Shown here: piece by piece, positions 3,044 to 6,278 of the stretch | Numbering within the stretch: position 1 is the stretch's first letter | Layout: every line of letters starts with the position of its first letter | Assembly (NCBI RefSeq): GCF_054482595.1 | Contig: NZ_CM137008.1 | Direction: 5' to 3' (one strand) | DNA: 64,000 nucleotides | Translations under genes and position numbers: made by a program | Notes under the pieces: generated by a model | What the model saw: only the letters and a program-made list of their open reading frames with translations | Database searches by the model: none | Told to the model about the DNA's origin: nothing

Positions 3044-3122
3044 AGGAATATCCCTTTTTCGTACTTTTAGTACGCATTATGGTTGAACTGAAAGTTTTTG
3101 CAAGTGCTTTAGTATCGTACTC
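3044..3122. promoter_or_regulatory. oR-type operator/promoter region (divergent pR/pRM) between cro and cI
   Basis: 79-bp divergent intergenic region with palindromes GTACTTTTAGTAC (3061-3073) and AGTATCGTACT (3110-3120) and motif TTATGGTT also present near the pL region. Confidence 0.6.
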
Positions 3123-3830
3123 ATGGTTCAGAATGAAAAAGTGCGCAAAGAATTCGCCCAGCGGCTAGCGCAAGCCTGTAAAGAAGCTGGTCTTGATGAA
3201 CATGGTAGGGGTATGGCCATAGCCCGTGCCCTTTCTCTTTCGTCCAAAGGCGTTAGCAAATGGTTTAATGCTGAGTCTTTACCGCGTCAGGAAAAAATGA
3301 ATGCGCTTGCGAAATTTCTAAACGTTGATGTTGTTTGGCTTCAGCACGGCACTTCGTTAAATGGAGCGAATGATGAAGATACTCTTTCATTTGTTGGCAA
3401 ATTAAAAAAAGGGTTAGTGCGCGTGGTTGGTGAGGCAATTCTTGGTGTTGATGGTGCCATCGAGATGACCGAAGAGCGCGATGGGTGGCTCAAGATTTAT
3501 AGTGATGATCCAGATGCCTTTGGTCTTCGTGTGAAAGGAGACAGCATGTGGCCCAGAATAAAATCAGGAGAATATGTACTCATTGAGCCTAACACCAAAG
3601 TATTCCCGGGGGATGAGGTGTTTGTCAGAACCGTTGAAGGACACAACATGATCAAGATTCTTGGCTATGACAGAGATGGAGAATACCAATTTACAAGCAT
3701 CAACCAGGACCACAGGCCAATAACGTTACCTTATCATCAAGTAGCAAAGGTGGAGTATGTGGCTGGTATTCTGAAGCAATCTCGTCATCTGGATGACATC
3801 GAGGCAAGGGAGTGGCTGAAAAGTTTGTGA
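3123..3830 (+). CDS. cI: CI-type prophage repressor (N-terminal HTH + C-terminal S24 LexA-like autopeptidase), 235 aa
   Basis: HTH at N-terminus; GDSM serine motif and downstream lysine (MIKILG) typical of S24 family; heterologous to lambda cI. Confidence 0.9.
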   Translation: MVQNEKVRKEFAQRLAQACKEAGLDEHGRGMAIARALSLSSKGVSKWFNAESLPRQEKMNALAKFLNVDVVWLQHGTSLNGANDEDTLSFVGKLKKGLVRVVGEAILGVDGAIEMTEERDGWLKIYSDDPDAFGLRVKGDSMWPRIKSGEYVLIEPNTKVFPGDEVFVRTVEGHNMIKILGYDRDGEYQFTSINQDHRPITLPYHQVAKVEYVAGILKQSRHLDDIEAREWLKSL

Positions 3831-3953
3831 CTTCAAGTACGCGACAAGCCCCGTCCTTCAGGGCGTGGAGGATGTCAAAATAACTTTAAATAACACACCA
3901 CCAACATTTAACACATTGAATTAAAAAACCTACAATATTTGATGAGAGGCGTT

Positions 3954-4274
3954 ATGGAACCGGTCAAAATTAAACCATCTGTGGATTATATTGAAACCTA
4001 TGCGGACTTCGCTAGTTTTGCTCCACTACCGGGAGCGGAAAAAAATCTCATTTGTATACATTTTATCGCAAACAAGTCAATACCTGCGGTACTATCCCAA
4101 AATGATATACCAGATCAACCAGGTAGAGCGAATATGCAGATAGGCTCTGTAAATGAACTCAATCAGCAATGCACTGTGATAATGCCAATGGCACAACTAA
4201 AGGCTCTTCAGGAGAATATAGTTCTTCTTTTCGAACAATTAGAGGCACAAAACTCTAATGGAGCGAAGTCGTAA
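3954..4274 (+). CDS. Hypothetical protein ORF-A (~106 aa), first gene of cassette in rexA position
   Basis: ORF with GAGG Shine-Dalgarno 5 nt before ATG 3954 (alternative starts 3939/3942); stop overlaps ORF-B start (TAATG); no family recognised. Confidence 0.6.
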   Translation: MEPVKIKPSVDYIETYADFASFAPLPGAEKNLICIHFIANKSIPAVLSQNDIPDQPGRANMQIGSVNELNQQCTVIMPMAQLKALQENIVLLFEQLEAQNSNGAKS

Positions 4275-4957
4275 TGCAACAACCGGAAGAAGTAGGTGAT
4301 TTAACTATTACTTACAAAACATCAAGTATTGTTAAACCACTGCAAGTTTCCCTGAATAACGTTAATACTCGCGATTTCATGATGTTCATGGAAACAGCAA
4401 AAGGTAATCTGTTTTCTACGCCTATTTCCTCTTATTCACCAAAAAACATGGTGGATGATGCGACCAATTCCCAGCTAACTGCTACAATCGTAGATAAAGG
4501 AGGGGTTGCCGATTGTAAAGGACAATCTAATGTTATCCCACCGTACGAGGAAACTCCTATACAGGGAACCGCAATGTCCGATTTGAGCAGAAACGAAATA
4601 CAGGCACTTCTGAAGGCAAATAAAGCTGAAGTGGATGCAGTGGCCTCAAAAATGCAGGCTGATATGGCCAAATGGCGTGAACTAATGGCTTCAGATATAA
4701 AGGAGATGAAGCATTTAGTTGTTACTCAGCACGAACAAATCAACAGTCGTCTGGACATACAATCGAGTAGAATTGAGAGTGCCCTTGACTCCCAATCAAA
4801 AAAGATCGATGCAGCTCTTTCTGTTCAAGAGGCAAAGTTAGAAGGTAAGCTTAGTGATGTTAAGCTTGATATAATCAAATGGGCCCTTGGCTTGCCAGCA
4901 TTAGCATTTGCTGTATATAAAATCTACGGATTGCTCTCTGGAGTCTCAACCCCCTAA
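4274..4957 (+). CDS. Hypothetical tail-anchored membrane protein ORF-B (227 aa), in rexB position
   Basis: Translationally coupled to ORF-A; heptad-like/charged segment ~100-200; single C-terminal hydrophobic helix IIKWALGLPALAFAVYKIYGLL; no family recognised. Confidence 0.65.
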   Translation: MQQPEEVGDLTITYKTSSIVKPLQVSLNNVNTRDFMMFMETAKGNLFSTPISSYSPKNMVDDATNSQLTATIVDKGGVADCKGQSNVIPPYEETPIQGTAMSDLSRNEIQALLKANKAEVDAVASKMQADMAKWRELMASDIKEMKHLVVTQHEQINSRLDIQSSRIESALDSQSKKIDAALSVQEAKLEGKLSDVKLDIIKWALGLPALAFAVYKIYGLLSGVSTP

Positions 4958-4963
4958 TACACA

Positions 4964-4989
4964 CCCGGCCTCAGTGCCGGGTTTTCTTT
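4964..4989 (+). terminator. Rho-independent terminator closing the cI/ORF-A/ORF-B unit (lambda timm position)
   Basis: CCCGGC-CTCAGT-GCCGGG hairpin followed by TTTTCTTT. Confidence 0.65.
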
Positions 4990-4999
4990 GCCCAACGTT

Positions 5000-5262
5000 C
5001 GCCCACCTAAAAACACATAATCGATTGTATTTATTGAAAAACTGATAGATACAACTTGCTAAACAGTGCAACCCTGATCCCTGCCCCATCACCTTCATCC
5101 TCAACATTTACAAAAATAAAATACCTTATATATCAAAACCATATCTCGAGAAAACGAATGAACAACAAAATTTCGTACTTATGGTTCTTGATTGTATCGA
5201 ACCAATAGTTCATTATTATCACCATCAGCAGGACGCTGGAAGCCAAACGGAACAGACTGGCA
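5000..5262 (+). promoter_or_regulatory. pL/oL region (inferred), driving N and the leftward early operon
   Basis: Located between terminator and nutL; candidate -35/-10 TTGATT-17-CATTAT at ~5178-5206; inverted repeats GAACCAATAGTTC and TTATGGTTC. Confidence 0.4.
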
Positions 5263-5309
5263 GGCTCTTTAAACAACGTCGAACTCTCGACTACGTGGCT
5301 GAAAAGCCA
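5263..5309 (+). promoter_or_regulatory. nutL-like site (boxA GGCTCTTTAAACAAC, boxB UGGCU-GAAA-AGCCA)
   Basis: boxA-like GCTCTTT and 5-bp stem/GAAA loop hairpin ~100 nt upstream of N; same boxA/spacer(CTACGT)/boxB layout as the nutR candidate. Confidence 0.5.
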
Positions 5310-5407
5310 GATCACCCAACCACATAAGCTGTGGGATGCAATGCCGAAGCAACCGTCTCAGGAGGAGCTTCGAGATTGCATCGCCAAAGTTTATTCGGGA
5401 GGAATCT

Positions 5408-5680
5408 ATGTCCAGAAAAACAAAATTTAAAGGCACCGCAGCTTCTCGCCGTAGAGCCCGTCGCGCAAATCTGCAAAGTCAGGAGGCGATCAGCTCCGAC
5501 AAGCTACACAGACCAACCCCTTCACGAGTGGTCTTGCAATGCAAGCGCAAACCAGCAATGAGAGCAGAAGTTATAACTCTGACAACGTTGACCAGAAAAT
5601 ATGAAGGTTCAACTTGTCTTCCGAACGTAGCTCTTTACGCGGCAGGCTACCGGAAATCAAAACAACTGACGGCGAGATGA
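5408..5680 (+). CDS. N: N-type antiterminator (90 aa), P22 gp24-like
   Basis: Arg-rich N-terminal motif (GTAASRRRARRANL) and C-terminus ...CLPNVALYAAGYRKSKQLTAR resembling recalled P22 gp24 ...LLPGVALYAAGHRKSKQITAR; ORF-track start 5336 judged too far upstream. Confidence 0.8.
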   Translation: MSRKTKFKGTAASRRRARRANLQSQEAISSDKLHRPTPSRVVLQCKRKPAMRAEVITLTTLTRKYEGSTCLPNVALYAAGYRKSKQLTAR

Positions 5681-5696
5681 TAAATTAATTTGCTAA

Positions 5697-6278
5697 TTAC
5701 TTGTTTTTGCCATGCTTATCCTGAGCGATAAGTTCATCCATAAGACTGTCTTTCTTCCCAGCAAACCTAATGTAGCACTCATTTCTATAGCGTTCCGGGA
5801 TAACAAAACGGTCGATTTCAGGATATCCAGTAGCAGAAGGTACCCGAATAAGAAGCCCTTTTTCGAGCAATGAGATTGCTTCAGGGCTTCCCTTTTCTGT
5901 CTTTAGCTGGTTATTAGCGGCTACAGCGAATGCCAAATACGCTCTTTCTCCAAGAGTTAACGAATCAAACAAATCTTGCACGTATTTCTCTTCTTTAGAT
6001 TTGCGCTTCTGAGCAGCGAATATCTCAATTCTTTCAGTCACAGCGTGATAAGCGGAATTAACAACGCCGTTAAGCACATAGCTAACGCAAAACAACAGGA
6101 TGTAATACATCCAGTAATGAGGAAGGATTTCTGGATTATGCAGGTTTATCCATTCTTTTACGCTTACAGGCATAACAATAATCAATATGATCAGGATGAT
6201 TAGCATATGAATCAACTGTTTAAGTGTCATTCCTTGCAGGAAAAAATGCATTAGTTCCTGCCACCATGAGTTGTTCAT
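5697..6278 (-). CDS. sieB: Superinfection exclusion protein B (193 aa), membrane protein
   Basis: Translation MNNSWWQELMHFFLQGMTLKQLIHMLIILIILIIVMPV... matches lambda SieB as recalled. Confidence 0.9.
   Translation of the reverse strand: MNNSWWQELMHFFLQGMTLKQLIHMLIILIILIIVMPVSVKEWINLHNPEILPHYWMYYILLFCVSYVLNGVVNSAYHAVTERIEIFAAQKRKSKEEKYVQDLFDSLTLGERAYLAFAVAANNQLKTEKGSPEAISLLEKGLLIRVPSATGYPEIDRFVIPERYRNECYIRFAGKKDSLMDELIAQDKHGKNK

Follow-up and report, generated by a model that had tools for sequence, protein, structure and literature searches.

The DNA analysed here is a stretch of 64,000 nucleotides from contig NZ_CM137008.1 (assembly GCF_054482595.1), referred to below as the window, and it begins within a lambdoid prophage in which a cassette of two overlapping open reading frames (ORFs), termed ORF-A and ORF-B, lies between the gene of a cI-type repressor and that of an N-type antiterminator. 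We regard the cassette as two-component cargo of the immunity hotspot, presumably expressed in the lysogen and made of uncharacterised protein families. A defence function is plausible from its position, its architecture and its modular shuffling, and the reading that we favour, at a probability of about 0.35, is a Rex-like exclusion module that combines a soluble sensor with a membrane effector. The parts of the presumed transcription unit are as follows, with lengths of proteins in amino acids (aa).

3123..3830, plus strand: cI-type prophage repressor with helix-turn-helix and S24 peptidase domains (PHROG 4, 1.6e-48; RefSeq 'LexA family transcriptional regulator')
3831..3953, plus strand: 123-bp spacer between cI and ORF-A, free of a terminator
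3954..4274, plus strand: ORF-A, 106 aa, predicted acidic soluble orphan (RefSeq start at 3954)
4274..4957, plus strand: ORF-B, 227 aa (PHROG, Pfam and RefSeq matches)
4274..4414, plus strand: ORF-B head (BN), residues 1-47, predicted small beta-beta-alpha fold (AlphaFold2 predicted local distance difference test, pLDDT, of 83-86 over residues 7-46; survey with our own profile)
4415..4573, plus strand: ORF-B linker, residues 48-100, predicted disordered (pLDDT below 50 over residues 48-98)
4574..4876, plus strand: CCDC90-like coiled-coil stalk of ORF-B, residues 101-201 (Pfam, invariant columns, motif, nonsynonymous differences)
4877..4957, plus strand: predicted C-terminal membrane helix WALGLPALAFAVYKIYGLLS of ORF-B, six-residue tail and stop, residues 202-227 (hydropathy, alignment, nonsynonymous differences)
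4963..4990, plus strand: intrinsic terminator that closes the cI-ORF-A-ORF-B unit, the equivalent of timm (hairpin and folding energy)

Both ORFs are real genes under purifying selection, beyond what chance would produce, since they are conserved across genera and show a low proportion of nonsynonymous differences (pN) against a saturated proportion of synonymous ones (pS). In comparisons of the window with the Yersinia, Klebsiella and metagenomic copies, pS amounts to 0.7-0.87 and pN to 0.25-0.47 for both ORFs; these two proportions are given in place of dN/dS, as saturation of the synonymous sites made that ratio uncomputable for most pairs. In ORF-B, the stalk and membrane helix have the lowest pN (0.10-0.13, with 0.13 for the tightly constrained membrane helix), the head is intermediate (0.26-0.43), and the linker is fast-evolving and nearly free (0.53-0.62).

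An earlier reading of the window from its letters alone, hereafter the sequence-only reading, had described two translationally coupled ORFs directly downstream of cI with a TAATG overlap, and these coordinates agree with the starts in one RefSeq E. coli genome, in which the same region is identical and annotated. The mechanical ORF for ORF-A opens at the TTG at 3939; RefSeq places the start at 3954, and the sequence GAGAGG lies four bases ahead of this ATG. The stop codon of ORF-A (TAA, 4272-4274) shares one base with the start codon of ORF-B (ATG, 4274-4276), and GGAG at 4260-4263 is found ten bases 5' of the latter. The 123-bp spacer between cI and ORF-A was scanned for a terminator or unusual RNA structure; none was found (z -0.32), and that candidate was rejected. 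Since the spacer is free of a terminator, one would most simply expect transcription from the cI promoters to run on into the cassette; cI, presumed to be the source of the transcript that enters it, is thus probably co-transcribed with ORF-A and ORF-B. At the other end, a 7-bp stem with six G-C pairs (4963-4982) is followed by TTTTCTTT, with a folding energy of -13.4 kcal/mol and z of -2.15. This hairpin, earlier called strong, is a credible intrinsic terminator, good rather than exceptional.

The sequence-only reading had assigned neither protein to a family, and for ORF-B this does not hold. The protein is named 'CCDC90 family protein' in RefSeq and matches PHROG 14825 (8e-129), a family of unknown function, as well as the Pfam family PF07798 (CCDC90-like/DUF1640; i-Evalue 3e-6, 27.7 bits), the latter with residues 106-214 aligned to model positions 63-167 of 175; the head region of the Pfam model (positions 1-62) is unmatched by ORF-B. 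PF07798 is also precomputed for most ORF-B homologues, of which those of Klebsiella and Yersinia are full-length with 50-67% identity, and those of Serratia and Providencia more distant or partial. By these profile matches ORF-B is a divergent member of the DUF1640/CCDC90 family.

Its predicted architecture agrees with the soluble N-terminus, long helix and single C-terminal transmembrane (TM) segment described earlier. In the AlphaFold2 model, which is of the monomer and was built from a 23-sequence alignment, residues 103-221 form one uninterrupted helix. The most conserved block of the superfamily, MSDLNRNE-QALLKANKAEVDAVAS-MQADMAKWRE, stands at the start of this helix, and the best-conserved block of the stalk is MSDLSRNEIQALLKANKAEVDAVASKMQADMAKWRE. 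An ANKAE motif that resembles the beta-layer type is found at the stalk start (4616-4630). For DUF1640 stalks, Hartmann et al. described a beta-layer motif at the same place as [aliphatic]-A-T-K-[polar]-[DE] (PMC4786415). In ORF-B it reads K-A-N-K-A-E, where A, K and E vary little or not at all among the 23 sequences and the first, T and polar positions deviate from the consensus. The sole hydrophobic segment of ORF-B (residues 196-222) reaches a Kyte-Doolittle maximum of 1.49 over 19 residues and lines up with anchors that are clearly hydrophobic in relatives of the type found in phage HK542. Because ORF-B has neither a signal peptide nor an N-terminal hydrophobic segment, and because lysines lie ahead of the anchor and the six residues of the tail behind it are uncharged, the protein should be tail-anchored to the inner membrane and have about 200 residues in the cytoplasm; by analogy with its family it is probably a trimer. 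A Foldseek search of the ORF-B model against the PDB returned noise only (E of 2 or above), as expected for a single long helix. We also considered a holin or other lysis-cassette protein and rejected it, as the protein is 227 aa long, some 200 of these residues are predicted to be cytoplasmic, and its gene belongs to the immunity region, between cI and N.

For ORF-A, by contrast, the absence of a recognised family was borne out: searches of Pfam, PHROG, NCBIfam, PADLOC and the PDB gave no match, nor did tblastn against isolated phages, and judged by sequence the protein is a true orphan. Its relatives are few: a set of 5.8 billion proteins yielded 6 clusters, and one of 1.84 billion yielded 8 representatives. 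They align over the full length, and P44, C73, M77 and L82 are invariant. The structural model (pLDDT 85.9) consists of a strand (19-24), a very long hairpin (32-51/59-78) and a C-terminal helix (79-101), that is, a predicted three-stranded sheet and helix (beta3-alpha) with a weak likeness to COMM. A Foldseek search with this model against AFDB50 retrieved uncharacterised bacterial proteins only, and PDB sequence searches with the family profiles of ORF-A and ORF-B yielded nothing meaningful. ORF-A has an isoelectric point (pI) of 4.75 and the N-terminal 100 residues of ORF-B, head included, one of 4.5; this acidity argues against nucleic-acid binding. The possibility that ORF-A and the ORF-B head are paralogues was rejected, since hhalign detected no similarity between them.

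The distribution of the cassette points to a mobile and modular unit. Wherever the upstream sequence suffices, the pair lies directly 3' of an S24-type repressor gene that is itself divergent from cro and cII. It occurs in Yersinia enterocolitica (loci L002-L005) with two different repressors and different replication modules, in Klebsiella (L006), in Providencia (L010-L012), in metagenomic contigs (L013 and L015), and in twelve IMG/VR prophage contigs (L019-L028, L031 and L032). The recurrence of the pair behind cI-type repressors, proposed for counting in the sequence-only reading, thus extends over several genera and at least seven distinct types of S24 repressor, including those of Escherichia, which indicates that movement of the cassette is not tied to immunity specificity. 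Among complete E. coli genomes the cassette itself, counted apart from matches to its flanks alone, is present in 39 of 5,426, always intact and at least 99% identical, and 1,539 genomes match some part of the 3400-5700 query. Among 100,044 species-representative genomes, six have a gene of the ORF-B superfamily: four genomes of Xenorhabdus, and one each of Providencia and Pantoea. By these genome counts the cassette is rare and patchy, like mobile defence cargo. A megablast search of 50,697 phage records gave no match to the cassette, and tblastn with ORF-B and the HK542 protein against isolated phages retrieved only HK244 and HK542.

Three hidden Markov models that we built, for ORF-A, for the ORF-B head (BN) and for the ORF-B stalk with anchor (BC), reveal how its parts are exchanged. 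ORF-A stands immediately 5' of every ORF-B that contains BN (24 of 24 intact fetched loci, and the window); in L031 and L032, ORF-A and BN are joined to a stalk and anchor of the HK542 type. ORF-A thus tracks the head and not the stalk, from which we infer that it binds the head. Relatives of ORF-B that lack BN are preceded by other partners, namely a beta-rich protein of 143-144 aa (HK542 and L029), a zinc-ribbon protein (L016, L035 and L052) or a protein of 92-100 aa (L030 and L039-L045). The last are probably remote ORF-A homologues, as suggested by an hhalign probability of 63% and E of 7e-5 over 86 collinear columns.

Several loci depart from this arrangement. Pairs of the ORF-B superfamily without a repressor ahead of them are found among apparent structural or tail genes (L016:4688-5597, L033:3457-4459 and L049), a setting judged by the Pfam labels of the neighbours and the size of adjacent ORFs; the partners at sites of this type are zinc-ribbon proteins of 106-131 aa or beta-rich proteins of 165-172 aa. 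Other relatives adjoin apparent toxin-antitoxin pairs, called by reading ORF translations as RelB/YafQ-like and HigB/HigA-like, in an IMG/VR contig (L034:4760-5306) and in Xenorhabdus ehlersii (L051:3977-4581). In one Klebsiella chromosome (L007:5338-6492) fragmentation affects the repressor gene as well as ORF-A and ORF-B, and in two low-coverage metagenome contigs (L008:902-1912 and L009:478-1488) ORF-B is split into 60-aa and 163-aa parts by frameshifts or assembly errors.

With cI upstream, the terminator and N downstream, and all of these on one strand, the cassette occupies the rexAB-equivalent slot, as the sequence-only reading had proposed. Sister prophages of E. coli whose cI 3' ends are closely related, two of them also with a matching N flank, carry different cargo here: a Clp protease/crotonase-like protein of 334 aa (L046:2095-3099), two small hypothetical proteins (L047:2197-2703), or a DUF3024 protein with a hypothetical protein and a Ser/Thr kinase (L048:3992-6068), the last of which we take to be Stk-like, as in phage 933W. 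The cargo of L046 and L047 offers uncharacterised candidates in its own right. The 3' part of cI itself (window 3400-3830) is 95-97% identical in many E. coli prophages with differing downstream cargo. Owen et al. described the region between cI and N as a mosaic hotspot for accessory loci, which holds rexAB in lambda and, in BTP1, the abortive-infection gene bstA, transcribed from the cI promoter (PMC8585504, PMC7067206). At the cI 3' end of the lambdoid prophage NC-SV, a 77-nt small RNA, svsR, is reported to limit phage infection (2026; PMC12803456); both svsR and HepS (PMC13043305) were considered and found to be unrelated to the cassette.

We propose that the cassette acts as an accessory operon of the lysogen, transcribed with cI and closed by its own terminator, whose products would form a two-part membrane complex. 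ORF-B would be a trimer with its C-terminal helix in the membrane; its head would be kept in the cytoplasm by a coiled-coil stalk (about 100 residues) and a flexible tether (about 50 residues), and ORF-A would dock on this head. ORF-A and the head may then sense a component of the infecting phage, or be titrated by it; the stalk and membrane helix would thereby be set free to disturb either the membrane itself or a membrane partner, with the result that the superinfecting phage would be blocked. The slot, the soluble/membrane design, the shuffling of putative sensors on a constant anchor, the constrained membrane helix and the patchy distribution make this the best-supported of the readings considered.

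A number of points weigh against it. Neither ORF-A nor ORF-B has a homologue among the known defence proteins of PADLOC: in PADLOC-DB v2.0.0, in which post-2023 systems are not covered, the only hit was a chance coiled-coil match (HEC-07, E 0.009), and ten proteins from sister cassettes gave no match at all. No enzymatic, catalytic or known sensor domain was detected in either protein. The TM segment of ORF-B is only moderately hydrophobic and there is one per chain, so that the three helices of a trimer would make a meagre pore. The putative docking of ORF-A on the head is drawn from their co-occurrence. A promoter-like sequence in the cI/ORF-A spacer (TTAACA-17-TACAAT, 3908-3936), a candidate for an internal promoter, was rejected because such sites are not above shuffles (4 found against 5.5 expected). 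Position in the hotspot does not prove defence, and the lambda morons lom and bor are not defence genes. Finally, the eukaryotic CCDC90/MCUR1 relatives are described as scaffolds and not as effectors.

The last of these points, together with the lack of PADLOC homologues and the fact that genes in the slot need not be defensive, favours a role outside defence, in which the pair would serve as a membrane scaffold with an effect on the envelope or stress physiology of the host (lysogenic conversion) or as a modulator of the prophage switch or of lysis timing. We consider this possible, if on the unlikely side, because partners and heads are repeatedly swapped on a constant stalk, which is typical of conflict systems and not of housekeeping scaffolds, and because the cassette is rare and patchy. 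More broadly, the prophage DUF1640/CCDC90 proteins as a whole may form a modular defence platform in which a constant trimeric membrane 'mast' acts as effector and exchangeable heads and adaptors (proteins of the ORF-A family, the 144-aa protein of the HK542 type and the zinc-ribbon partners) act as phage sensors. This broader proposal is doubtful at present; if true, it would define a new class of two-component exclusion system and provide the first function for the bacterial branch of the MCUR1/CCDC90 family.

The membrane anchorage of ORF-B and the cytoplasmic location of its bulk would also suit a non-abortive superinfection exclusion at entry, with the head and ORF-A placed on the cytoplasmic side of the inner membrane and stopping genome delivery there, through an inner-membrane entry factor or the incoming ejection or tape-measure proteins, and the cell surviving. 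The TM helix is conserved beyond the needs of a simple anchor, the relatives in L016, L033 and L049 are morons in apparent structural or tail-gene regions, sieB is a neighbouring gene, and SNIPE sets a precedent for a cytoplasm-facing, membrane-anchored defence at the injection site (PMC13190303). This explanation is nevertheless distinctly unlikely, as only six residues would be exposed to the periplasm in the window subfamily, no nuclease or other activity domain is present, and the acidity of ORF-A and the head makes DNA binding unlikely. Still less probable is an addiction pair of the toxin-antitoxin type, with ORF-A as a labile antidote that translational coupling would cause to be made first and in excess, and ORF-B as a membrane toxin; such a pair would stabilise the prophage, and phage exclusion would be secondary to host shut-off. 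A small acidic protein encoded upstream, overlapping codons, a membrane protein downstream, the co-variation of ORF-A with the ORF-B head, and the relatives in L034 and L051 beside apparent classic toxin-antitoxin pairs would all accord with it; however, there is no similarity to known toxin-antitoxin families. The broken or split ORF-B copies in L007-L009 retain ORF-A and the reverse never occurs, a pattern that fits decay and not addiction and is uninformative here.

The surroundings of the cassette in the window comprise the following features.

Window start, minus strand: lambdoid early region with ren, P, O, cII and cro
5264..5291, plus strand: probable nutL, recognised by eye, with the boxA-like sequence GCTCTTTAA (5264-5272) and a 5-bp hairpin (5278-5291)
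5408..5680, plus strand: N-type antiterminator, the far border of the slot (PHROG 271, 1e-24; RefSeq annotation)
5697..6278, minus strand: sieB, full-length and convergent with N (PHROG 1301, 6e-124)

The sequence-only reading had placed pL, nutL and N after the cassette; the profile match secures N, and pL and nutL are recognised by eye only, GCTCTTTAA being presumably close to the boxA consensus. A perfect palindrome, CGTACTTTTAGTACG, at 3060-3074 between cro and cI is a likely operator half-region, and repeats resembling TTATGGTT and GAACCAAT recur near 5174-5215, in the expected oL/pL area. In the interval from the cassette terminator to N, RefSeq has a frameshifted pseudogene labelled 'hypothetical protein' (window 5133-5407; L001:7356-7581); it overlaps the presumed pL/nutL leader and is probably an artefact of annotating a leader that is not translated. 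The sieB gene lies about 740 bp from the cassette, so that the prophage already holds one recognised exclusion gene.

The slot between cI and N has already been the source of rexAB and bstA, and kinase cassettes are found there too; the pair described here, conserved and under selection, occupies this slot in several genera of enterobacteria, among them clinical E. coli, Klebsiella and Yersinia. Should the pair exclude phages, it would be a mechanistically new membrane-anchored system, and exclusion would explain the repeated recombination of a constant stalk and anchor with varied heads and partners; bacterial DUF1640 proteins, which are related to MCUR1 and CCDC90B of mitochondria, would then have a first function. 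Without a phenotype, it would be one more prophage moron of unknown role. No paper within the scope of our search, DefensePredictor supplements included, connects DUF1640/CCDC90 or the two RefSeq accessions with prophages or with defence; that scope does not extend to the screen for defences in E. coli prophages by Brenes & Laub (2025), which is the main gap in a claim of novelty.

Several known systems share features with the cassette. The nuclease SNIPE is bound to the membrane, faces the cytoplasm and acts at the injection site, and it resembles the proposed complex in its inner-membrane anchor and cytoplasmic functional parts (PMC13190303). It differs in having an N-terminal TM segment, DUF4041 and a nuclease domain of the GIY-YIG type, whereas ORF-A and ORF-B lack an enzymatic domain and the anchor of ORF-B is C-terminal. 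BstA of BTP1 is encoded in the same hotspot downstream of cI and is an abortive-infection protein co-transcribed with cI (PMC8585504, PMC7067206); however, it is a single soluble protein, and the proteins and mechanisms are unrelated. The kinase cassette of L048 shares the slot, and the window pair is devoid of kinase or KilA-N-type domains. With CCDC90B and MCUR1 (PF07798, DUF1640), ORF-B shares the profile match over stalk and anchor and the C-terminal TM segment; at the stalk start, its A-N-K-A-E resembles A-T-K-x-[DE] in part. In contrast to them, it has its own head and predicted disordered tether in place of the family head, resides in a prophage and is accompanied by an obligatory small partner gene; a relative in the PDB was found neither by sequence nor by Foldseek.

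A close parallel in position and layout is RexA/RexB of lambda, encoded in the same slot between cI and pL/N, on the cI strand and up to a terminator, by two genes with one soluble and one membrane product and with presumed expression in the lysogen. RexAB excludes phages such as T4 rII, and membrane potential is lost in the process. The proteins themselves are different, in agreement with the sequence-only reading: scans of Pfam-A, PHROG and PADLOC gave no Rex match, ORF-A (106 aa) is far smaller than RexA, and the one C-terminal TM segment of ORF-B, borne on a long coiled coil, contrasts with the polytopic membrane protein RexB. Judged by sequence, the cassette is thus comparable to RexAB in position and layout and is not a member of that family. 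A sister pair is encoded by the lambda-immunity phages HK244 (HK24405/HK24404; EF120457) and HK542 (gp35 pair; NC_019769), where two overlapping hypothetical genes for proteins of 144 and 206 aa lie between cI and the Timm terminator, that is, in the rexA/rexB position; the earlier description of the system as undescribed was to this extent overstated. We found no reported function for this sister cassette, and the families of its products, PHROG 5893 and PHROG 5820, are both of unknown function. Its second protein shares the stalk motif, the coiled coil and the C-terminal TM segment with ORF-B, whereas the 144-aa beta-rich upstream partner (PHROG 5893) is unrelated to ORF-A, and the membrane protein of HK542 has no BN head but a periplasmic tail rich in Pro and Gln, and belongs to PHROG 5820 instead of PHROG 14825. 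HK542, an isolated and sequenced phage of lambda immunity with the sister cassette where rexAB would be, therefore offers a ready natural comparison.

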